Assembly (NCBI GenBank): GCA_964492935.1
Contig: CAZBLF010000003.1
Span: 1 to 62,993, forward strand
Reading direction: 5' to 3'
Origin: an uncultured Methanosarcinales archaeon
Lineage (GTDB): Archaea; Nanobdellota; Nanobdellia; Woesearchaeales; JACPBV01
Length of the DNA stretch: 62,993 nt
Shown: piece by piece, positions 100 to 59,803 of the stretch
Layout: each line of letters starts with the position of its first letter
How positions within the stretch are numbered: position 1 is the stretch's first letter
Made by a program: the position numbers and the translations under genes
Notes under the pieces: model-generated
Seen by the model: only the letters and a program-made list of their open reading frames with translations
What the model was told of the DNA's origin: nothing
Database searches by the model: none

Positions 100-933
100 T
101 TATAGTTGTTGGAGCACTTCATTTACGCTCTCTTCTGCCCACCTTTGTGCGAGGAGTTCTTGTTTTACTTGTTGTTGTGACATCCCCGTGGCCATTTTTG
201 ATTGGATATAGGTACGTAATTGTTCTTGATGGGGGTCAAGTGGAGTTAATTTTTTGTGTTTGATGGTGATAAGAGTGGTTATCAGACCTAGGACGAGAAA
301 CGCATTAATGATTAGTGAAACTATCAACAGAACATTTCGATCTTCGGGAGCAGATAGTGCTTGCTCCGAGGGAGGTGATTGTTGAGAAGAGGGAGTAGAT
401 TGGTCCGGAGTTGATTGCTGGGTGTTGACTGTTTGCTGGTTAGATGTTGCCTCACTTTGCTGACAGGGTAGGCATACTCCTCCGCAGTCAACTCCCGCCT
501 CATCTCCATTTTTCACCCTATCGGTGCAACTGGGAAGCGTGCATTTGTTTGCTAGGCAATACTTCGTTAGACAGTCGTTTCTAGAGGTGCATGTTTTCTC
601 TCTTTCACAACCACTACAGCTTCCTCCACAATCAACATCAGTCTCATCTCCATTGAGGATTCCGTTGGTGCAGGTGTTGGTAGTAGTAGGTCCTTGATTG
701 GAGTTGGTAGTGGTAGTGGTTGTTTGATTTGTAGATGTAGTTGCTGATTGATTTGTATTTGTGCTAGTCGTGGCATCATTATCATCAGCTTGGCTTGTAG
801 GCGACGAGGTATCGGCTGGCGGAGTGTTACTGCCACTCATGGAAGGAGGAGCTGGAGGGGGAGCGGGTGGGGGTGCGATTACTGCAGGTAGTAAAACGAG
901 TATACAGAGTAGTACAACCATAACGATACGCAT
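100..933 (-). CDS. Surface/membrane protein with Pro/Thr-rich linker and two Cys-rich modules
   Basis: 277-aa ORF. Hydrophobic N-terminus (MRIVMVVLLCILVLLPAVIA), PPPAPPPAPP and a T/N/Q-rich low-complexity stretch. Two copies of an NGD-E-x-VDCGG-x-C-x2-C module. C-terminal TM helix plus short tail. Confidence 0.6.
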   Translation of the reverse strand: MRIVMVVLLCILVLLPAVIAPPPAPPPAPPSMSGSNTPPADTSSPTSQADDNDATTSTNTNQSATTSTNQTTTTTTNSNQGPTTTNTCTNGILNGDETDVDCGGSCSGCEREKTCTSRNDCLTKYCLANKCTLPSCTDRVKNGDEAGVDCGGVCLPCQQSEATSNQQTVNTQQSTPDQSTPSSQQSPPSEQALSAPEDRNVLLIVSLIINAFLVLGLITTLITIKHKKLTPLDPHQEQLRTYIQSKMATGMSQQQVKQELLAQRWAEESVNEVLQQL

Positions 934-977: not shown

Positions 978-3900
978 TCAGAAATCCTTCAGGCTGATCT
1001 GGCCCTTTCTTTTATTTTCTTTTATTTTGAGTTTGTCGAAGTCTTGGCCTACTTGTTTTTTTACGGAAATTGCGGTGGCTTTGCCTAGGATTTGGACGAG
1101 ATTCATGATTTCGATCTTTTTGATGTCTCCTAGGGTGCGGATGCTGTTCTTGTGGAGTTTTCTCCCGCGTGCACGACCTATGCCTTTTAATTTTAGGAGA
1201 GGTATTAGTTCTTCTTTAACGCCATTCGTGATTCTTATTCTCAATTTTTGCATGTGAGAGGATAATTTAGGGAGACTCATGAGCTTGGTTAATTCGATGC
1301 AACAGTAGCAGAGCCAATCGGCGATGTCGATCTTGGTGCGTACTTCACCGGGACGGATGTTGTACTTTTCTAGGAGATTTTCCTCGGTGTTTTCATCTAT
1401 CCAGTCGAGGAAAAAGAGTGCTGTTTTCATCGCATTGAGGAAATCATCATATTCTGCATCATAGAGCGAGGGTTCTTTTTCTAAGAGGGCATGTTCTACT
1501 TTATTGACTGCTTCGTTGACGTCGTCATGATCTTTTGCCGTTACTCTGAGTTGTGGACGAATTTCTAGGGTTGATGAAAGGAGATGGAGGAAGCTGATGG
1601 TGGGGACTTTCATTCTTGTTGCGCGTTGCATGCCGAGAATTAATTGATGTGCGGTGTAGGGATCTAGATAGAGCTCGGCTACACGCTTGCCTACTCGTGT
1701 AGCTTCGTATTTTTCGTCCTTAAGGTTGTCGGCTGATTCGAAGTCGTTGTGGTTAGTGTTGGATTTGAGAAACTCCCACTCTTCTAGAAGTTCAAGCATG
1801 GATTCTATTTTGCCCTGAAGGACATGCATGTCTTCAAATTGGTGGGCCCAGAAGGTTTTTCCAAAGAAATCGAAGATTTGTTGTTTTGTTGAGACGAAAT
1901 CGGCTGCAATGAGGCTGAGTAAGTAGGTTCTTAATACTGGTTCAACGGCTAATTTGCTCTGGATGTCTTCGGGGTCGGCTAGCAAGTACTTTTCTGTTAG
2001 TTTTTCTTTTTCTAGTTCGGATGCTGCTATGACGATGGCTTGGCCTTCTGTATCGTATCCGGGACGTCCTGCTCGACCGGCCATCTGGAGATATTCTAGA
2101 ACTGGAATATAGGTTAATCCACGAAAGCCGAATCTTCTGAGGTCTTTGATGATGGTTCTGAAGGCTGGCAAATCTAGGCCCATTGAATTATGAACAATGA
2201 ACCCCTCGGCAACGAACATATGGTTATTTTTTGGAGTGGAAGGCAGCATAATATCATACACGGTTTCTTTTTTTCTTACTACTTTGATGCTTCTCAACCG
2301 GTCCCAGAAGATATCTCCTTCGAAATCTTGATCTCTCCAACCCTTTTTGATGAACCAATCCAGTTCATTTTCACACAGTGGACAATTTCTCAATCTGAAG
2401 AATTCGACAATACTCTTTTCCCTTTGGAGTATGTTGTTGTAGAAATACGTTCCTATCTTATTGAGACTCCATAACCACTCCGTCTTGCTTCTACTTCCTA
2501 TTCTTCTTTTATCAATCAATTCATAGTGATGATTCAAGCGAGCATCTTTCTTTTTTGGTTCTGTCCCGAATAGTTTCTTGAGCTCTCTTGATCTGAGTTC
2601 ACCTTTTCCCCCAAGAAGCATTAGCACTCTCCTTTTGATCCCGCCCCATTCTTTCATTTCTTTTGTTCTACCATTGAACAGGTCTTTGTAAATCTTGTAC
2701 TGGCATTTTTTACATTCTACAAAGTTAACATTCGCACAGATTTTGCCTACAAGGTCTATGAGCACATCCTGTTTTCTTTTTACTCTGAAACCTATGTGCT
2801 TATAGAAATCAAGAATGCATATCTTTTGGTGTATTTCTAGCTGAAAGCAGGGCAACGTTTTGTACTCTTTGCGATCTATCTTCATTGAACCAGCTTTCTT
2901 TGTACGGATTCTGCTGACGATTCCAAATCTCAGTAGCAGCTTTTGAGTCTGTCGTATCAATTTTTCCGAGGTATTACAGAAGCCAGGCCCCATTCCACGA
3001 TCTACAAAACCGTCTGTGTCAAAAAGACCTTGCAGAAGTCCGATGGTGTTCGCCCTATTTAGATTCAAGAGTTTGTTATTGATGTGTTTCTCTTTACCTT
3101 TTTCAACGCCACATCGCACTAAGAATTCTCTAAACCATTTATTTTTACCCAACACTAGGGAGGGGGTGCCACTCGCCATGATAGTTTCTCTTTTGCTGAT
3201 TCCGAGTATTTCACAAACAACTCTAGCTACCTGAAAGATTTCTATGTCAATTCCGACAAGCGAGGGTGATCCTTTGTAGATTATTTTATTGCCAACTGTT
3301 TCTGCTCCAGAATAACCATCGCCTAGCATTGCCCCTATAAAGTATGAAATCGATGCATCTATAATTATTGGGGAGCTGTCTGTCTGATTATCATTTACAA
3401 AGTCACCCATTTTGAAGCTTTGGCTCTTATTAATCTTCAGCCGACCAATAGTTGCGATTTTGTTCTTCCTTTTGACATGCTTTGCTTGGACTAGTTTTTT
3501 CTGTTGGCCACTTTTAATTAGCATTTCATGTTCGGGAGTTACGAGAATCTTGTATCCAGAAACTGAGGTAATTTCTATAAGTTCTGATACCTCTCCAATT
3601 CTTGCAACTTTTTTTGGTTTCATGGCTATTACATCGCTATTGGAAAGCGCAAAAAGTTTATTGGAAGATCTGAACTCATGTATCTCGGTTTCTTTAGTTC
3701 CGTGCCAGATTTTAGTGTTCTTGGCAAGGCAGAGGGTAGGGGTACAACAAATTATTTTTACGTTTCCTGCCTTGAAATTATCTTCGATGAGGGTGCGTTG
3801 TTTAGTTGTTAACCCCGCATGATGGAAGGCAACTCCTTTTTTGAGACATCTTCCAAGCCGTTTGCATTGTTTGGTCGGCGAGGGTAGCGCCTTAAGGGCT

Positions 3901-4085
3901 GCAGTTTCTAAATCGTCTAAGGGTTGCCGGGTTGTAATCTTTGCTGCGATGTCTTCGGCTGCTTTTTCTGCTGAACGTTTTGTGTTTGCGAAAATGAGTG
4001 CTTGTTTCTTTAATTTGATGGTATCAAGTGCTAGATTGATGTCTGCTCTTTCAGAAATGGTCTCAATTTTCAGTGCCCTACTCAT
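978..4085 (-). CDS. Hel308/Ski2-type helicase, RecA2 + winged-helix + ratchet + HhH part only, interrupted by an intein (no RecA1 domain)
   Basis: 1035-aa ORF. Motif IV-like ALIFANTKRSAEKAA at residues 29-43, then HHAGL and motif V TPTL followed by the intein. The extein resumes at SMGLDLPA, then motif VI QMAGRAGRPGYD and a C-terminal HhH (LKLKGIGRARGRKL). An in-frame TAG (4086-4088) lies directly upstream of the ATG. No Walker A or DExH segment is present. Confidence 0.85.
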   Translation of the reverse strand: MSRALKIETISERADINLALDTIKLKKQALIFANTKRSAEKAAEDIAAKITTRQPLDDLETAALKALPSPTKQCKRLGRCLKKGVAFHHAGLTTKQRTLIEDNFKAGNVKIICCTPTLCLAKNTKIWHGTKETEIHEFRSSNKLFALSNSDVIAMKPKKVARIGEVSELIEITSVSGYKILVTPEHEMLIKSGQQKKLVQAKHVKRKNKIATIGRLKINKSQSFKMGDFVNDNQTDSSPIIIDASISYFIGAMLGDGYSGAETVGNKIIYKGSPSLVGIDIEIFQVARVVCEILGISKRETIMASGTPSLVLGKNKWFREFLVRCGVEKGKEKHINNKLLNLNRANTIGLLQGLFDTDGFVDRGMGPGFCNTSEKLIRQTQKLLLRFGIVSRIRTKKAGSMKIDRKEYKTLPCFQLEIHQKICILDFYKHIGFRVKRKQDVLIDLVGKICANVNFVECKKCQYKIYKDLFNGRTKEMKEWGGIKRRVLMLLGGKGELRSRELKKLFGTEPKKKDARLNHHYELIDKRRIGSRSKTEWLWSLNKIGTYFYNNILQREKSIVEFFRLRNCPLCENELDWFIKKGWRDQDFEGDIFWDRLRSIKVVRKKETVYDIMLPSTPKNNHMFVAEGFIVHNSMGLDLPAFRTIIKDLRRFGFRGLTYIPVLEYLQMAGRAGRPGYDTEGQAIVIAASELEKEKLTEKYLLADPEDIQSKLAVEPVLRTYLLSLIAADFVSTKQQIFDFFGKTFWAHQFEDMHVLQGKIESMLELLEEWEFLKSNTNHNDFESADNLKDEKYEATRVGKRVAELYLDPYTAHQLILGMQRATRMKVPTISFLHLLSSTLEIRPQLRVTAKDHDDVNEAVNKVEHALLEKEPSLYDAEYDDFLNAMKTALFFLDWIDENTEENLLEKYNIRPGEVRTKIDIADWLCYCCIELTKLMSLPKLSSHMQKLRIRITNGVKEELIPLLKLKGIGRARGRKLHKNSIRTLGDIKKIEIMNLVQILGKATAISVKKQVGQDFDKLKIKENKRKGQISLKDF
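2187..3731 (-). mobile_element. Intein (515 aa) with LAGLIDADG homing-endonuclease domain, inserted in helicase motif V
   Basis: Begins with Cys (TPTL|CLAKNTKIW) and ends FIVHN|S. Block B is VTPEHEML. LAGLIDADG motifs are FIGAMLGDGYSG and LLQGLFDTDGFV. There is an extra CKKC...CPLC pair. Codons checked: 3729-3731 gca = Cys, 2187-2189 att = Asn (residues 119-633). Confidence 0.85.
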
Positions 4086-4107
4086 CTATTGAGAGTAGCG
4101 CACTTAC

Positions 4108-4116
4108 TTTTATATC
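4108..4116 (-). promoter_or_regulatory. TATA-like box for the helicase fragment
   Basis: Minus strand reads GATATAAAA, 23-31 nt upstream of the ATG at 4085. It lies over the 3' end of the neighbouring gene. Confidence 0.5.
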
Positions 4117-5279
4117 TTTTCTAGTGCTTGTTTGATATCTTCTACTAGGTCATCTGTATCTTCTATTCCTACTGAAAGTCTTACAAGGTTATCTGTGATT
4201 CCGATCTTTAGCCTTTTTTCTTCCTGTATCGATGCATGGGTCATGCGTGCTGGATGGTTTACTAATGATTCTACTCCTCCCAGGCTTTCTGCAAGGGAGA
4301 ATAGATCAAGATTTTCCATGAATCTTTTTGCATGTTTGTATTCTCCGTTGATTATTAGTGTAATCATACCACCAAAACCCTTCATTTGCGTTTTTGCTAG
4401 CTCATGCTGAGAGTGTGATTCAAGCCCAGGATAGTAAACCTTCTCTATCTTGGGATGGTTTTCTAGAACTTTTGCTATTGCTATCGCATTTTTCTCGTGT
4501 TGCTGCATTCTTGCATGTAGTGTCTTGAGGCCGCGAGCAACGAGGTAACTATCAAATGGACTTAGCATGAGTCCTGCTGCGTTTTGGGTGTACTGTAGCT
4601 TTTTGTAAATCTCTTTATTGTTGAGCATTAGTGCTCCCCCTATACTATCGCTATGCCCGTTGATGTATTTAGAGGTGCTATGGAGGACGATATCTGCTCC
4701 TTGTTCTAAGGGATTCTGGAATACGGGAGACATGAATGTGTTGTCCACAATCACTAGAATATCTTTTACAGCCTTCTTTATATCCTTGATATCGCTTAGC
4801 TTCATCATGGGATTTGTTGGACTTTCAAGCCAGATGAGTTTTGTGTTTTCTTTTACAGCATGTTTGATGTTTTCTGGATTTGTTGCGTCAACATATTCTA
4901 CCGCTACGTTGAAGTTATTGCTGAAGACTTTGTCGAAGAGTCTCATGGTTCCCCCATATAAGTCATCGGATGCGATTACATGGTCTCCTGATTGCAGAAT
5001 GGATAATGCTATGAGCGTTTGCGCAGTTAGTCCTGATGTTGTTGCTAGAGCGTGTGTGGCATGTTCGATGGCTGCGAGTTTTTTTTCAAGAGTGAACCTA
5101 GTGGGGTTGCCAGATCTTGAATATTCATAGCCATTAGTGGGTATGTCAACTTCTTTTCTTGCGAAGGTTGATGATAGGTGAATGGGAATGACTACATCAC
5201 CCGAACCTCCTTCTTTTAGATTTGGTTTCTCTCCTGCGTGGATTGCTTCTGTTCTAATATTTCCATTCATTGAAATCAC
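4110..5279 (-). CDS. Cystathionine gamma-lyase/gamma-synthase family PLP enzyme (Cys/Met metabolism)
   Basis: 389 aa. The family pattern YSRSGNPT, DNTFMSP and STSKYINGHSD (PLP lysine) is present. The length fits the family. Confidence 0.85.
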   Translation of the reverse strand: MISMNGNIRTEAIHAGEKPNLKEGGSGDVVIPIHLSSTFARKEVDIPTNGYEYSRSGNPTRFTLEKKLAAIEHATHALATTSGLTAQTLIALSILQSGDHVIASDDLYGGTMRLFDKVFSNNFNVAVEYVDATNPENIKHAVKENTKLIWLESPTNPMMKLSDIKDIKKAVKDILVIVDNTFMSPVFQNPLEQGADIVLHSTSKYINGHSDSIGGALMLNNKEIYKKLQYTQNAAGLMLSPFDSYLVARGLKTLHARMQQHEKNAIAIAKVLENHPKIEKVYYPGLESHSQHELAKTQMKGFGGMITLIINGEYKHAKRFMENLDLFSLAESLGGVESLVNHPARMTHASIQEEKRLKIGITDNLVRLSVGIEDTDDLVEDIKQALEKI

Positions 5280-6180
5280 CGTAGATGTTTTTTGTTAGAT
5301 ATCTCTCTCCAGCGTCTGGAAAGATGGTTACTATGTTCTTTTCGGGATGTTCGGAAGCGATCTTTTTCGCAGCCCAGAATGCTGCACCTGAAGAGCTTCC
5401 TACTAACATTCCATGTTTACTTGCAAGCTCAAGGACTGCTGCATGCGCATCTTCATCCTGGACTACAATCGATCTTTCTATTATCGAACTATCAATGAAG
5501 TTCGAGAGATTTTCTTTTTCAACACCAATACCTTCAATCTTGTGGGATTCTTTCTTATCGCTTGTGAATGCGGATCCCTTGGGTTCTACAGCAATAATCT
5601 TGATTTCCGGATTTTTTTCTTTGAGATACTTTCCTGCACCTATGATCGTTCCAGCAGTTCCCATTCCGGCAATAAGGAAATCTATCTTTCCCAACTCTTT
5701 TCGAATTTCAGGTCCCGTTGTTTCATAATGTGCCTTCGGATTTGCTGGATTTGAGAATTGTTCTGGGATGTATGCGTTAGGGATTGTGTTTTGTAGCTCT
5801 TTTGCCTTGGCTATTGCTCCCATCATCCCTCCTTCAGTCGGAGTATGGACAATTTTTGCTCCCAACGCTTTCATAATGATTTGTTTTTCCTCGCTGAATC
5901 GCTCAGGCACTACTGCGATGAACTTATATCCTTTCTGAGTTGCGATTAACGCTAATCCAATCCCTGTGTTGCCTGCAGTAGGCTCAATAATGGTGGTGCT
6001 ACGATCGATCCTACCTTCTTTTTCTGCTTCTTCTATGAGATAGAGGGCAGTCCTATCTTTAATGCTCCCTCCTGGGTTGAATTGTTCAAGTTTTGCGTAA
6101 ATTTTGGTGTTTTTTATTCTTATTAGCGGCGTATTACCAATCAATTGAGTAATATCTGAAATCATAATGATGACCTCCAT
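5254..6180 (-). CDS. Cysteine synthase / cystathionine beta-synthase family (fold-type II PLP enzyme)
   Basis: 308 aa. Motifs NPGGSIKDR (PLP Lys), EPTAGNTG, GMGTAGTIIG and SSGAA. The 3' end overlaps the next gene by 26 nt. Confidence 0.85.
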   Translation of the reverse strand: MEVIIMISDITQLIGNTPLIRIKNTKIYAKLEQFNPGGSIKDRTALYLIEEAEKEGRIDRSTTIIEPTAGNTGIGLALIATQKGYKFIAVVPERFSEEKQIIMKALGAKIVHTPTEGGMMGAIAKAKELQNTIPNAYIPEQFSNPANPKAHYETTGPEIRKELGKIDFLIAGMGTAGTIIGAGKYLKEKNPEIKIIAVEPKGSAFTSDKKESHKIEGIGVEKENLSNFIDSSIIERSIVVQDEDAHAAVLELASKHGMLVGSSSGAAFWAAKKIASEHPEKNIVTIFPDAGERYLTKNIYGDFNEWKY

Positions 6181-6284: not shown

Positions 6285-8276
6285 CTACCCTGTGACCGCG
6301 TACTGATAGAAGATGTCTGGATCTTGTGTTGATTGAGTGGGTGTTGTTTGTTGTACTGTGGTTGCTGGTTGTTGCTGGACAATTCTGACCATATTGATGT
6401 TCCATTCTTCCTTTACTTTTTCTTTGCCGTCACTTACTGTGACTTTTACTTTTTTCTTTCCTGGAGAGGTGAAAGTGCGGCGCATGGCGGAGGTTCCATT
6501 GTATTTTTCTAATAACCCAAAGTCCCAGGTGTAGGTTAATGTATCTCCATCCGGATCGACTGCATCGATGATGAACGTTACGGGTCGACCGGCAATGCCT
6601 TTGCTCCCTGATTTGGGTTGTGCCGTTTTGATGATCGGTGCTCGATTGACGTGTTCCACAAGAATAGGTATTTCGATATCAGTAGTATCGGCGCCATCGC
6701 TTACGGTGGCTTGAAGAGTGATGTTGTTTACTCCTGAAAGTGATGTGTCGTAATCAGGTGTCCAGGTGATGGTGGTATCTTGAATGTTCATGCCGCGAGG
6801 TGGATCTCTAAGTTGCAGAGTGGTAGGATCCCTGTCTGGATCAGTAATTTCTACATTGAATTCAATCTCTTGATTTTCCTTTACTTCAAGGCTGGCAGGT
6901 ACGGTTGCAGTTGGTGGGCGATTAGTGTTTGTAACCTCAACGATGAGATCTCGTGTTTCTTTGAGGAATCCATCTGAAGCGGTGACTTTTACAATATGCT
7001 TTCCTTCGTCATCGAAGTTTGTGAGGTAGGTATCGGAGGCCATCCATCCTGCGTAGGTGAATTTGATGGCGTCGTTATCTGCATCGAAGGCTTCTGGAGT
7101 TATGGTGATGGATTCTCCTTCGGCTACGGTGATGGTAGATAGTTCAACGAGCTGTGGTGGTCTATTGATGTGCTTGACCCAGATATAGATGGTGTCGGTT
7201 GTGGTGAGATCGTTACTTTCTGCAACGAATTCTAATTTGAAGGGGTAGTAGAGCAGGTGAAATTTGTCTGCAATCTTTTCTATAAGCGTATCTTTGTTTA
7301 CCGTTTCGAAATCCGTTTGCCAGGTGAATGTGTTGCCATCGAATGAGGCGCCATTGGGTAGGTTTGTGAGTGCAATTTGTACTCGATCTCCATCAGGATC
7401 TTCGGAGTTAACGTCGAATGAAACTTCATCATTTTCATTTATGAAAATTGCTCCGATGCGGTCAAAAATAGGATTTCGATCGTTATCGAGTACGGTTACT
7501 ACAATGGTTTTTTCGACTTCAAAGTCTCGATCGGTAAGGGTGATGGTGACGTCATATTCTCCGGCATCATCAAAAGTAGTTTTCCAGGTTCCTGTTTCTA
7601 ATGGCGCGGAAATTTGATATTGCAGATTGAGTGCCGCGAAGTCTGGCAGTGTAAGGGAGACGGTTTCGGTTTCGGTAACGGTGATGTCCTCAAAGGCATC
7701 TAGGAGTGCTTCACGATCGACTTCTTGTACTTCTATTTCCCAGGTGAATGAGGCTTCCTTATCGCCATCTCCGATATTGACGGAAAGTTCGAGATTGCCG
7801 GCATCACCGTAATCTGCAAGAAATTCGAGGGTGTTGGTTGTTGTTTCAAGTTCTCTTTCATTGAGCACCCAGTTATACTCTAGGTTATCGCCATTGATGT
7901 CGGAGGCGTCGATAGAAAAGGTAGCAACTTGGCCTTCTTTCATGACTACTTGCTGTGGAGGGCTCGTTGTGAGTATTTCTGGAGCTTCGTTTTTCTTCTC
8001 AACGACAAGAAGTACCTCTTTAGCTGTTGTTAACTCCCCGTCAGAAACTCGGATGCTAATGTTGTAGGTGCCGGCATCGCCATACGTGGTTTGCCACTGT
8101 CCTTCCTCATTAAGAGGAGGGGTATAGTAGATATTGAGTTGGTCGTTGTCTGGATCGTTAACGGTTACTTTGAGATTGACGAAATCGGTTTCTTGGACTT
8201 CAACGGTTTCAATGGCAAAAGCTAGGGTTAGTGAACTTATTAAAATAATCACGAATACTGCTAGCTTTGCCTTCAT
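6285..8276 (-). CDS. Secreted protein with about 7 tandem PKD/cadherin-like Ig repeats
   Basis: 663 aa. Signal-like N-terminus MKAKLAVFVIILISSLTLAFA. Repeated units of about 90 aa each carry a DPDxD/DxNGD motif (DPDNDQL, DINGDNL, DPDGDRV, DADNDAI, DPDRDPT, DPDGDTL). Confidence 0.7.
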   Translation of the reverse strand: MKAKLAVFVIILISSLTLAFAIETVEVQETDFVNLKVTVNDPDNDQLNIYYTPPLNEEGQWQTTYGDAGTYNISIRVSDGELTTAKEVLLVVEKKNEAPEILTTSPPQQVVMKEGQVATFSIDASDINGDNLEYNWVLNERELETTTNTLEFLADYGDAGNLELSVNIGDGDKEASFTWEIEVQEVDREALLDAFEDITVTETETVSLTLPDFAALNLQYQISAPLETGTWKTTFDDAGEYDVTITLTDRDFEVEKTIVVTVLDNDRNPIFDRIGAIFINENDEVSFDVNSEDPDGDRVQIALTNLPNGASFDGNTFTWQTDFETVNKDTLIEKIADKFHLLYYPFKLEFVAESNDLTTTDTIYIWVKHINRPPQLVELSTITVAEGESITITPEAFDADNDAIKFTYAGWMASDTYLTNFDDEGKHIVKVTASDGFLKETRDLIVEVTNTNRPPTATVPASLEVKENQEIEFNVEITDPDRDPTTLQLRDPPRGMNIQDTTITWTPDYDTSLSGVNNITLQATVSDGADTTDIEIPILVEHVNRAPIIKTAQPKSGSKGIAGRPVTFIIDAVDPDGDTLTYTWDFGLLEKYNGTSAMRRTFTSPGKKKVKVTVSDGKEKVKEEWNINMVRIVQQQPATTVQQTTPTQSTQDPDIFYQYAVTG

Positions 8277-56681: not shown

Positions 56682-57407
56682 GTGATTAGTAATAGTACTA
56701 TTAATGTGACTAACCATACCATGAAAGAAAGATCTACTACTGCAGCGGACAGAAGGAGGGAGCTCATAGATGAGGCTTCAGCCCATGTAACAGATGTAGC
56801 TGGGAAATCAGAGGAGTATGGCGATAAGTTGGATGTGGTTCTTGGAAAGTATTCTGGGCATGAAGTTGGGGATGTAGATAAATTATTGGATGAGCTTTAC
56901 GGTAAGACTGATGAGGTGGGTGGAAAGCTCTCTGAACTTCTTGAGGAAAGGGTTCTTGAGGTAGGAAAAAAGCCTGAACAGCTAATAGGTCAGTATGGAA
57001 TTTCTAGAAGTCAATTGGATACTTTTCTTCGTGAAAGAGTTGTTAAGGGCAAAATTACGTCTCAAGCTGTACAGGAAGCTCGACAGGCATTACAAAGTCA
57101 ATATCTTTCGGAAGCATTACGACCTACTGAGTATACGGTCACCGGCGCAGAGGCTGGAGATAAGGTCGAATTAGCAGGAGGTATTGGCGAGATGGTTGAC
57201 CCCGCTTCTAAGGGGAAGGCAGTGCCTCAAATCCAGAATTTCACTAATGGGGTACCTGAGCGAGTAGATCAACATTTTAGGCAGACTTTACCACAGCTAG
57301 CTAATACGTATACTGCACGTCAGCGTGGAATTTATGGTGGTTTAGAATCTGATGCCGCTGTAAAGGAACCTGCACATTACCGTAAGGCGAAAGCTAAACA
57401 TAACTAG
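56682..57407 (+). CDS. Hypothetical protein
   Basis: 241 aa from a GTG start. ATG 56721 (MKERSTT) fits the TATA box at 56667-74 better. A/E/G/R-rich, no motif. Confidence 0.4.
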   Translation: MISNSTINVTNHTMKERSTTAADRRRELIDEASAHVTDVAGKSEEYGDKLDVVLGKYSGHEVGDVDKLLDELYGKTDEVGGKLSELLEERVLEVGKKPEQLIGQYGISRSQLDTFLRERVVKGKITSQAVQEARQALQSQYLSEALRPTEYTVTGAEAGDKVELAGGIGEMVDPASKGKAVPQIQNFTNGVPERVDQHFRQTLPQLANTYTARQRGIYGGLESDAAVKEPAHYRKAKAKHN

Positions 57408-57412
57408 GGGGA

Positions 57413-57745
57413 TTGTTCATGAAAAAATTTAGAGGAGTGCTGGATAAGGTTAGTTCTATCTTAGATAGTAAGGTATTGAAGCCTGCTGATAAGAAGTCTA
57501 AGGCTTTCGACATGCTCAACGCCCACTACGGGAAAAGTTATATGATTTTTCGTCAGCTTGAAGATTTGCAAACTCTACAAAAGAATTATCATCATGAGGT
57601 CTATATTGTATTAAGAGATGTTCTTGGCGATAAGCACCCCGTTACGAATGCTCAAATTAAGAGAAAACTTAAGCGCTTGAAGACGCTTCATCTGGAGAAC
57701 ATGCTTACCATTAAGGATGTCATGAAGCGAGAGAAATATCTCTGA
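57413..57745 (+). CDS. Hypothetical small helical protein
   Basis: 110 aa from a TTG start. ATG 57419 (MKKFRG) is likely and is preceded by AGGGGGA. Confidence 0.4.
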   Translation: MFMKKFRGVLDKVSSILDSKVLKPADKKSKAFDMLNAHYGKSYMIFRQLEDLQTLQKNYHHEVYIVLRDVLGDKHPVTNAQIKRKLKRLKTLHLENMLTIKDVMKREKYL

Positions 57746-57828
57746 TTTTTTGTTTTTACATTCTCTATTTACCCTTACTTAGTCTTTTTCCGATAGCTTT
57801 TTATATAGTTACTACTGTCTAGTGGTTT

Positions 57829-58893
57829 ATGGTAAGGATTGGAGCTTATTTTCATAACTCAGACGGTAGTACGATCATGCCGAAGGCCTATGGTCACGGC
57901 GAATTTGAGAAAGATAAGGCTGCAGGTGGTTTTGAGCAGTATGGCGAGATGCATCTGCGCGACCAGGGCAAGAAGGATATGGATGATTGGACGTCTCGTC
58001 ATGGTATTCATGATGTTGTTGCTCAACGGAAATCTGTTGGTATAAAAATTCCTGTTAAGGGTGTTTATGAGATTGCTGGTGCGCCGAAGGACGGTATTAG
58101 GGTAGCGAAAGGCGATCTTGATGTCAATATGCGAGATGTAGGGAAATATCTTTCTAAAATGCATCAATTACAGGAGGATGTTGTTTCGTATCTGCGTTCG
58201 GATGCTGGAGATGCTATGCGAGAGCATTTTGCTGAAAAAGGTATGTCGATTGAGGATATTGGTAATTTGGCAATTGGGTATATCGGTGAAAGTGCGTTTG
58301 CTGCTATTGGTCGAGGTAGGGATGGGAAGATTACTCTGTATGCTAATCCTAACTTCTTCAAGGATGCTGAAAGGCAAGCCAAGTATCTGGGATTAAGCGC
58401 TAAGGAGCAAAAGGAACTGGTGATTGCTGAAGAATTAGGTCATAATTTTAGGAAGTCATATGATCGGTTGTCCATGATTTTTGGTTTGTTAGGGGTGATT
58501 CCGGAAGAGGTTGCTACGAAAAAAGATGTTACTACTATCTATCATCGGTTGGCTGCTGAGGCTAGGGATCCTGTTGAAAAGGCCAAATATACTCGCATGG
58601 CACGGATGAGTCATATCGATATGTTGCTTGCTCCTGTTACGTATGCTCGCGCTGCTGCTCGAAAAAGTGCTAAAAAGTCATCTGAACTTGAGGCATTGGT
58701 TGCTGAGGCGGTTGCTGAAGCAGCTGAAGAGGGCATTACTTCTGAGGAAGGAGTTGCTTCGTATGTTGCTGGTAAGGTTGCAGAGTATGTTGATGATGCT
58801 GACTTAGAGGATGCCGTTGATTCTGATGAAGATGGTTCGGAAGCTTCAGATGAAGATTCTGGCGATTCTGATGGCGATTCTGGCGGAGAATAG
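57829..58893 (+). CDS. Hypothetical protein with strongly acidic C-terminal tail
   Basis: 354 aa. It contains AEELGHNF (not a true HExxH). The last 60 aa are D/E/S/G-rich. Confidence 0.4.
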   Translation: MVRIGAYFHNSDGSTIMPKAYGHGEFEKDKAAGGFEQYGEMHLRDQGKKDMDDWTSRHGIHDVVAQRKSVGIKIPVKGVYEIAGAPKDGIRVAKGDLDVNMRDVGKYLSKMHQLQEDVVSYLRSDAGDAMREHFAEKGMSIEDIGNLAIGYIGESAFAAIGRGRDGKITLYANPNFFKDAERQAKYLGLSAKEQKELVIAEELGHNFRKSYDRLSMIFGLLGVIPEEVATKKDVTTIYHRLAAEARDPVEKAKYTRMARMSHIDMLLAPVTYARAAARKSAKKSSELEALVAEAVAEAAEEGITSEEGVASYVAGKVAEYVDDADLEDAVDSDEDGSEASDEDSGDSDGDSGGE

Positions 58894-58918
58894 TTCTTTT
58901 TAGGTTTGATTTGTGTTC

Positions 58919-59033
58919 GCGCTGAGGCACGGCCGTATCATGAGCAAGCTCAATTTGAAGCGAGCGAGAGTAGCTGTGAGACTTCGTCAAATCGCCGCTT
59001 CTCGCAACAGCGGCCTCAATGGGCGTCAGCGCT
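58919..59033 (+). repeat. Family-C structured repeat, long form (C1)
   Basis: Closed by GCGCTGA/TCAGCGC. The core GAGGCACGGC..ATGAGC..TTGAAGCGAGCGAGAG.AGCTG.GAGACTTCGTCAA.TCGCCGCTTCTCGCAACAGC.GCCTCA..GGGCGT is about 85-90% identical to C2. Confidence 0.85.
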
Positions 59034-59035
59034 GC

Positions 59036-59803
59036 TTAGGATTCTATAGCGGTTAGCCAGAGGACTTTGGTATATGCTGTGATGGCTAGGGTTGTGAAGA
59101 TTGCTATTAGAGGAATTGCGAGATAGCCGTCGATGGTGGTCATGAAGAGGTACATTGGCAGGGCTACTAAGAGGATGTTGATGAGGAAGAAGAGTAGGAG
59201 AAGGTGGCCTTTGTTGATGATTAGGGAAAGGATTTTCTTAGGTATTTGTTTTATGGGATGATGTGTTGTTGCGAATGCTGTATAGCTGAGGAAGGAGATG
59301 ACTGCGATTACGGTTAATGCTACTCCCGTGGGTAAATACTGTTGTTCATTGATGCCGGTTAGGGCTGTTTTTAGGTAGCTTGTGATAAGTTGTTGTATTG
59401 CTATTGAGGTTATTAGACCGATGATTACTATGTTGACATAGGTTTTGGTGTTTATCTTTCTGATCATGGATTGCGCTAATAACCATGCTACTCCGTTGAT
59501 GAGGATGAAGGCTATTGCTATTGCTATTCCTCCTCGCTCGAAATAGGTGAGCATGTTTTGGAAGCTTCTGTAGATTTTGGCTGCGTCTTGTTGTTGGAGT
59601 TGCGGTTGTTCTTGGTTTTGTATTGCTAATTGGTCATAGATTTCCATTCCTTGCTTGCCTTCCTCTATTGCTGGGATGATGGTGAAGAATGCTGCTATGG
59701 AGATGGTGAAAAGGAAGAGTAGTTGTACCACTACGATGGTTGCGAATCTTGATTTGTTGTTCTTTATTTTTTGGAAGCTGTTTTTGAAGGGTTCTTTGAT
59801 CAT
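59036..59803 (-). CDS. Polytopic membrane protein, unknown function
   Basis: 255 aa with about 6 TM. A Q-rich loop (NQEQPQLQQQD). Flanked by direct copies C1 and C2. Confidence 0.5.
   Translation of the reverse strand: MIKEPFKNSFQKIKNNKSRFATIVVVQLLFLFTISIAAFFTIIPAIEEGKQGMEIYDQLAIQNQEQPQLQQQDAAKIYRSFQNMLTYFERGGIAIAIAFILINGVAWLLAQSMIRKINTKTYVNIVIIGLITSIAIQQLITSYLKTALTGINEQQYLPTGVALTVIAVISFLSYTAFATTHHPIKQIPKKILSLIINKGHLLLLFFLINILLVALPMYLFMTTIDGYLAIPLIAIFTTLAITAYTKVLWLTAIES

Follow-up and report, generated by a model that had tools for sequence, protein, structure and literature searches.

A Hel308-type helicase divided between two unlinked genes in the archaeal order Woesearchaeales

How does a helicase gene that lacks the front half of its motor persist as a long and intact reading frame? 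This question is raised by the stretch of DNA analysed here (hereafter the window), which comprises 62,993 nucleotides (nt) from an uncultured archaeon of the order Woesearchaeales (contig CAZBLF010000003.1 of assembly GCA_964492935.1) and carries an open reading frame (ORF) for only a part of a Hel308-type enzyme. Hel308/HELQ is a conserved genome-stability helicase, and its ATP site lies between the two RecA lobes of a single chain. An earlier reading made from the letters alone (the sequence-only reading) had proposed that the absent RecA1 half is encoded elsewhere and assembles in trans with the window protein, a truncated remnant being the alternative. The genome in question (G000) measures 1.15 Mb in 57 contigs, is 84.8% complete and contains the window as contig C3; the coordinates of all features are collected in Table 1.

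The window ORF is complete, starts with an ATG at 4085-4083 and has an in-frame TAG (4088-4086) immediately 5' to it. Pfam analysis of the encoded protein led to an interrupted Helicase_C domain, an Intein_splicing domain with a nested LAGLIDADG_3, HTH_61 (winged helix), Helicase_dom4_arc (PF21280, the ratchet domain, 8.7e-31) and HHH_5 (helix-hairpin-helix, HhH), with the HTH_61 and HHH_5 matches both under the Pfam curated cut-off, while no DEAD/RecA1 domain was detected. Residues 18-124 correspond to 229-336 of Pyrococcus furiosus Hjm (2zj2) and residues 634-1029 to Hjm 331-713 (E-value = 6e-76), and the next-best structure matches are the Hel308 proteins of Sulfolobus solfataricus and Archaeoglobus fulgidus. 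All RecA2 motifs are present, namely IV (within ALIFANTKRSAEKAA, residues 29-43), IVa (F/YHHAGL), V and VI (QMxGRAGR). The window gene corresponds to the rear ~70% of Hel308: it encodes RecA2 without strands one and two, followed by the winged-helix, ratchet and HhH domains, and contains an intein whose removal would leave a large subunit of 520 amino acids (aa; 1035 - 515). In all these respects the sequence-only reading had described the ORF correctly: its limits and start, the place of motif IV, the motifs and domains that follow, the lack of RecA1 and a mature product of about 520 aa. Concerning the beginning of the protein, it had named the right region, the start of RecA2; however, the frame does not open just before that domain but about 19 residues inside it, the first two strands being kept by the partner.

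This partner was found by scanning the whole genome for PF00270, which gave six matches, one of them within an open frame of 223 aa located centrally on contig C7. The predicted 222-aa protein carries the RecA1 motifs Q, I (GSGKT), II (DEIH) and III (SAT), matches residues 15-213 of Hjm 2zj2 (E-value = 1.7e-64) and 11-218 of the A. fulgidus Hel308, and ends on Hel308 where the window protein starts. It has the features that had been predicted for the missing half, a frame with GxGKT and DExH that stops ahead of motif IV, and the five Hel308 domains of this genome are distributed over two genes on different contigs instead of residing on one polypeptide. A full-length Hel308, which had been named beforehand as the observation that would speak against a split gene, was not found among the six DEAD-domain loci. 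Of the five others, the three that were examined are of Lhr type, of XPD type and a 636-aa Ski2/DSHCT paralogue, while the remaining two matches sit in frames of 485 and 500 aa. The complete 636-aa helicase (L004), a candidate for a full-length Hel308, turned out to be a distinct paralogue and was dismissed. Separately, a 355-aa LAGLIDADG_3 ORF (L003:411-1478, + strand; G000:C2 ~58612-59679) overlaps the start of an Lhr-type helicase gene by 80 nt; it may be a homing-endonuclease-like gene standing on its own, or else encode a DNA-binding protein.

The same division is encountered throughout the order. Among 40 related genomes from 28 families of the Woesearchaeales, the front half lies in an open frame of 197-293 aa in 37, and the rear half in frames of ~500-566 aa; a class-wide sample contributed 23 further genomes of the order, with front-half frames of 215-350 aa. 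In total, a short front-half frame (197-350 aa) was present in 61 of the 65 own-order genomes searched and a fused gene in none of them, closed genomes included. Two of these genomes (G005 and G013) are unpublished and support only the counts of presence and length and, for G013, the intein identities. The two halves are unlinked, 30-333 kb apart in closed or near-closed genomes. As in naturally split proteins of DPANN archaea, each ORF has its own start and stop, the pair tiles a fused orthologue and both are conserved in relatives. In other orders of the same class, Hel308 is normally fused, in frames of ~700-757 aa, or of 1233-1246 aa where an intein is present. When the C-terminal region that follows motif V was used to build a tree, the sequences of the order grouped together (SH-aLRT, a likelihood-ratio branch support, 96), with the closest fused sequence (G136) nested weakly inside this group (SH-aLRT 83). 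We interpret G136 as the closest outgroup with a fused gene and not as a re-fusion. The simplest reading is one fission event, at the root of the order or close to it.

Some further frames need a separate word. Outside the order, short front-half frames in G144 and G068 proved to be contig ends and not splits, and those in G047, G101, G117 and G086, judged by their coordinates, look like contig ends too; further short frames of this kind occur in G080, G141 and G073. In G123 (L067, contig C7), a fused Hel308 frame of 569 aa meets one in-frame stop and is followed by 154 aa of the C-terminal region, which could reflect a sequencing error, a recent pseudogene or a nascent fission. Within the order, G019 (96% complete) yielded neither Hel308 half and only the ~640-aa Ski2/DSHCT paralogue, and may represent a joint loss of both Hel308 genes.

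The locus itself is contiguous. The window stretch 3300-4900 is present in 20 public runs, which come from 18 studies of marine, seawater and hydrothermal-vent metagenomes, and contigs were compared from four runs not flagged as possible sources, one per study. All four cross the junction at 4086-4110, where a misassembly had been suspected, with 0 differences. Selection also points to maintained genes. A comparison of G000 with its congener G001 gave approximate dN/dS (nonsynonymous to synonymous substitution rate) values of 0.069 (small subunit) and 0.048 (large-subunit exteins). In all 13 small subunits compared, motifs Q, I, II and III proved invariant, as did motifs IV, IVa, V and VI in all 13 large ones. 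Pairwise distances of the two halves over 15 genomes are correlated (r = 0.83, with 0 of 5000 Mantel permutations as high), and their mean divergence is alike (0.35 and 0.39). Both genes are maintained under purifying selection, and, since this conservation extends over the order, the split is not decay; the sequence-only reading had likewise argued against decay from the intact 3.1-kb frame.

We were able to locate the cut on the Hel308 fold. Small subunits measure 218-233 aa and end in ...G-E-V-E-F-x, while large subunits without intein measure 502-529 aa and begin with M-x-x-K-I. Aligned to 14 fused orthologues, the halves abut with zero overlap and only a few loop residues missing. G136 has the nearest fused orthologue (699 aa), and in its AlphaFold2 model (mean predicted local distance difference test, pLDDT, 91.3; predicted template modelling score 0.85) the cut site is the loop 211-217, after strands 198-205 and 208-210, which themselves come after the last RecA1 strand (188-191). 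Domain 2 of Hjm starts at residue 198 (PMC2636818), and the model therefore places the cut about 19 residues inside RecA2, so that RecA1, the linker and two initial RecA2 strands all reside in the small subunit. When this subunit is modelled by itself, it adopts a confident RecA1 fold, but its last 22 residues (201-222) form a low-confidence hairpin with pLDDT 53-63, whereas the same tail strands score 92-96 within the fused model. This fits, without proving it, a tail that becomes ordered only on the partner. The presence of two RecA2 strands on the small subunit suggests assembly by strand complementation, as far as single-chain models and published domain limits can indicate.

The large subunit of G000 is additionally interrupted by an intein within motif V, between TPTL and SMGLDLP. 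It starts with Cys 119, ends with His-Asn (632-633) followed by Ser 634 at +1, and retains both LAGLIDADG motifs intact (LGDGY and FDTDGF), as characteristic of a class 1 intein with a LAGLIDADG homing endonuclease; splicing is predicted from these residues. Its occurrence is sporadic: G000, G004 and G013 carry it at the same site, and the congener G001 and most of the order lack it. In G130 (L068), from another order, the fused Hel308 bears an intein of equal length at the same site, and comparison with the window showed 50.6% identity between the inteins and only 37% between the flanking exteins. The higher identity of the inteins suggests that the element has moved horizontally, by homing, between split and fused host genes. 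The fission lies 118 residues upstream of the intein and the two are unrelated.

Each gene would have a promoter of its own. The TATA-like box that had been noted at 4108-4116 is indeed there (GATATAAAA), and in the partner gene a TATA-like TTATATAA begins at -31. Among relatives, TTTAWATA (at least 6 of 8 positions) starting between -36 and -26 was counted for 14 of 18 large-subunit and 13 of 19 small-subunit genes, a crude consensus scan that is no proof of promoters. Separate transcription of leaderless or near-leaderless mRNAs from each gene is a reasonable inference from these sequences.

Taken together, we consider a non-covalent, two-subunit Hel308 the best explanation, with a probability of about 0.8. 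Its direct support comes from the existence of two genes, their fit to fused orthologues, the order-wide conservation, the purifying selection, the invariance of the motifs and the contiguity of the locus. According to this explanation, each gene would be transcribed from its own TATA box, and the large subunit would first splice out its 515-aa intein, restoring motif V and becoming competent only then. The two polypeptides would subsequently associate without covalent linkage, with the C-terminal beta-hairpin of the small subunit likely inserting into the RecA2 sheet of the large one, and the ATP site would be rebuilt in the cleft between the lobes. RecA1 with motifs Q, I, Ia, II and III would come from the small subunit, together with the linker between the lobes and the two initial RecA2 beta-strands; the remaining RecA2 (IV, IVa, V and VI) and the winged-helix, ratchet and HhH domains would come from the large subunit. 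The fission would date from a single event at the root of the order that placed a clean stop-plus-start within a surface loop, and the split state would have persisted ever since. Because the genes are unlinked and the cut lies inside RecA2, the ATP site must in that case form between two polypeptides, and assembly in trans, as foreseen by the sequence-only reading, remains an inference. Certain points weigh against this explanation. With G000 84.8% complete, a fused gene could in principle have escaped assembly, although none occurs in any own-order genome searched. Only one of the halves was recovered from a few genomes of the order, G023 and G037 being without the C-half and G032 and G012 without the N-half, most likely reflecting incomplete bins. 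The only close pair, G000-G001, has dS values of 1.06 and 1.35, near saturation, which makes its dN/dS approximate. The low pLDDT of the small-subunit tail is only suggestive, and no RNA run was listed among the public runs containing the stretch 3300-4900.

A different fate of the two products is conceivable, in which they no longer cooperate, the large one binding or annealing DNA without ATPase activity and the small RecA1 protein having another role or partner. Genes that are unlinked and separately promoted, and the few genomes with just one half, would agree with this, as would an ATP-independent strand-annealing activity attributed to Hel308 in PMC10484726. Nevertheless, the ATP-site residues are invariant on both sides of the divide over at least 28 families, with motifs I and II in one gene and V and VI in the other, the halves evolve at similar rates and co-vary, and two RecA2 strands remain on the small subunit, where they would serve no evident purpose without RecA2. 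The 96%-complete own-order genome devoid of both halves also speaks for a common fate, and we consider independent functions unlikely.

Covalent joining of the halves, either by split-intein protein trans-splicing as in the DNA polymerase B (PolB) of Nanoarchaeum equitans or at the RNA level, is very improbable. Inteins do occur in this lineage, one of them in the window gene itself, and Nanoarchaeota are known for trans-spliced tRNA halves (PMC3655853). However, both ends of the break consist of helicase sequence that aligns to fused orthologues, with no intein blocks there, the lengths of the halves sum to that of the fused protein and leave no room for intein halves, and each gene has its own start, stop and TATA-like box. 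Least credible of all, to the point of being negligible, is a truncated remnant or an artefact of assembly or binning. A bin as fragmented and incomplete as G000 would invite such an explanation, but the frame is intact over 3.1 kb with a dN/dS of 0.05, the same gene start is found in the contigs of four independent studies, and the same architecture recurs in 61 genomes of the order, single-contig ones among them.

A second site of division was found in three genomes from three other families of the same class, namely G204 (closed), G138 and G168. In these, the Hel308 frame covers RecA1 and RecA2 and stops right after motif VI (...GRAGRP*), and the remainder, with the last RecA2 strand, winged helix, ratchet and HhH, forms a separate frame of 349-366 aa, while Hel308 is fused in G126, which bears the same genus code as G168. 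Like the first, this split leaves one RecA2 edge strand on the partner polypeptide. It may be speculated, although we find it doubtful, that Hel308 fission has occurred repeatedly and is tolerated only where a RecA2 edge strand or hairpin stays on the partner, as at both sites. If true, donor-strand complementation would be a general rule that makes a superfamily 2 (SF2) motor divisible, and a detachable ATPase lobe could be regulated via stoichiometry, on-demand assembly or an intein-gated large subunit.

Concerning the surroundings of the window gene, the upstream neighbour is, as originally noted, an unrelated pyridoxal-phosphate (PLP) enzyme ending 24 nt away. Two adjoining PLP-enzyme genes lie here (window 4110-6180, - strand), encoding Cys_Met_Meta_PP (389 aa) and PALP (308 aa) proteins, and may work as a pair in transsulfuration or cysteine synthesis, which is notable for a DPANN genome of 1.15 Mb. 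Farther upstream, a 663-aa protein (window 6285-8276, - strand) with Big_9, PKD, cadherin-like and He_PIG Ig-type domains probably acts at the cell surface or in adhesion. On the downstream side, 44 nt from the helicase gene, lies a 277-aa ORF (window 100-933, - strand) with no Pfam family at E <= 0.001.

Table 1. Location of the split Hel308 genes, of neighbouring elements and of the sequences used for comparison.
Feature	Location	Strand	Remarks
Large (C-terminal) Hel308 subunit precursor ORF, complete	window 978..4085	-	1035 codons + stop
N-extein, residues 1-118	window 3732..4085	-	RecA2 motifs IV, IVa (FHHAGL), first half of motif V (TPTL)
Intein, residues 119-633, 515 aa	window 2187..3731	-	LAGLIDADG; Intein_splicing 3e-16, LAGLIDADG_3 3e-14
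C-extein, residues 634-1035	window 981..2186	-	rest of motif V, motif VI (QMAGRAGRP), winged helix, ratchet domain 4, HhH domain 5
Spacer, upstream PLP gene to helicase start, 24 nt	window 4086..4109		suspected misassembly junction
TATA-box-like element GATATAAAA	window 4116-4108	-	23-31 nt before helicase ATG; overlaps stop codon of upstream PLP gene
Upstream neighbour, Cys/Met-metabolism PLP enzyme	window 4110..5279	-	E 3e-150; ends 24 nt before helicase ATG
Small (front) Hel308 subunit gene, 222 aa	G000:C7:8272-8940	+	PF00270 match
Front and rear halves, G029 (closed)	1,150,953 and 1,188,796	+ and -	~37 kb apart
Front and rear halves, G038 (closed)	754,128 and 420,632	+ and -	~333 kb apart
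Front and rear halves, G035	C4: 323,310 and C4: 47,096	- and +	276 kb apart
Front and rear halves, G034	C3: 11,681 and C3: 41,575	- and +	30 kb apart
Post-motif-VI split, G204	C1:291630-292756 and 295208-296224 (L076)		second gene 2.5 kb downstream, other genes between
Post-motif-VI split, G138	C4:30953-32059 and 56954-57940 (L064, L077)		second gene 25 kb off, opposite strand
Post-motif-VI split, G168	C64:213-1373 and C62:619-1554 (L075)		second gene on another contig
Contig of run X7	window 3817-4900 and beyond		part of 16-kb contig
Contig of run X8	window 3598-4900		
Contig of run X9	window 3757-4174		
Contig of run X10	window 4054-4588		

An order-wide two-chain Hel308 would demonstrate that separate polypeptides can make up an SF2 motor and would offer a ready-made system for probing inter-lobe coupling. 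For annotation, the ~220-aa and ~520-aa products should be listed as subunits of one enzyme and not as 'partial' or 'DEAD-box fragment', and Woesearchaeota should not be counted as being without an intact Hel308. The list of DPANN split genes also gains a helicase, which, considered along with the second cut site, is an instance of one protein having split more than once. We found no split Hel308 in the literature, including a survey of the Ski2 family (PMC10946056), a survey of archaeal fusions and fissions (PMC11237513), DPANN reviews and a preprint on complete Nanobdellota genomes, and the protein is missing from those published lists of split Nanoarchaeota proteins that were found. This kind of fission is already known in Nanoarchaeota (PMC3655853), and the split Hel308 itself is apparently undescribed.

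Compared with known systems, the archaeal Hel308/Hjm enzymes of the Ski2-like SF2 group (2zj2 of P. furiosus, 2p6r of A. fulgidus and 2va8 of S. solfataricus) possess five domains and a set of motifs that are all found here as well, but the characterised enzymes are single-chain, while the present one is encoded by two unlinked genes. Its intein resembles those known in the RecA domains of archaeal SF2 helicases, such as the LAGLIDADG intein in RecA2 of aLhr2 (PMC8301817), in that an Intein_splicing domain with a nested LAGLIDADG interrupts RecA2 sporadically among relatives; it differs in its host, the large subunit of a split Hel308, and in its insertion in motif V. Split genes of N. equitans and Nst1 include the 'large helicase-related protein' Lhr (NEQ003/409, Nst172/239) and reverse gyrase (PMC3655853, Table 1), and Lhr is split at different sites in the two Nanoarchaeota lineages (PMC3655853). 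The likeness to Hel308 is evident, since an information-processing enzyme, in the case of Lhr another SF2 helicase, is divided over two genes in reduced DPANN genomes, and the two Lhr split sites parallel the two Hel308 cut sites seen here. Unlike those cases, the Hel308 fission is fixed across a family-rich order with genomes of mostly 0.6-2.2 Mb, beyond one or two extremely reduced genomes. The split PolB of N. equitans is likewise an archaeal replication and repair enzyme encoded by two distant genes; its halves, however, carry intein halves and are ligated, whereas no intein sequence occurs at the Hel308 break, for which a non-covalent heterodimer is therefore to be expected.

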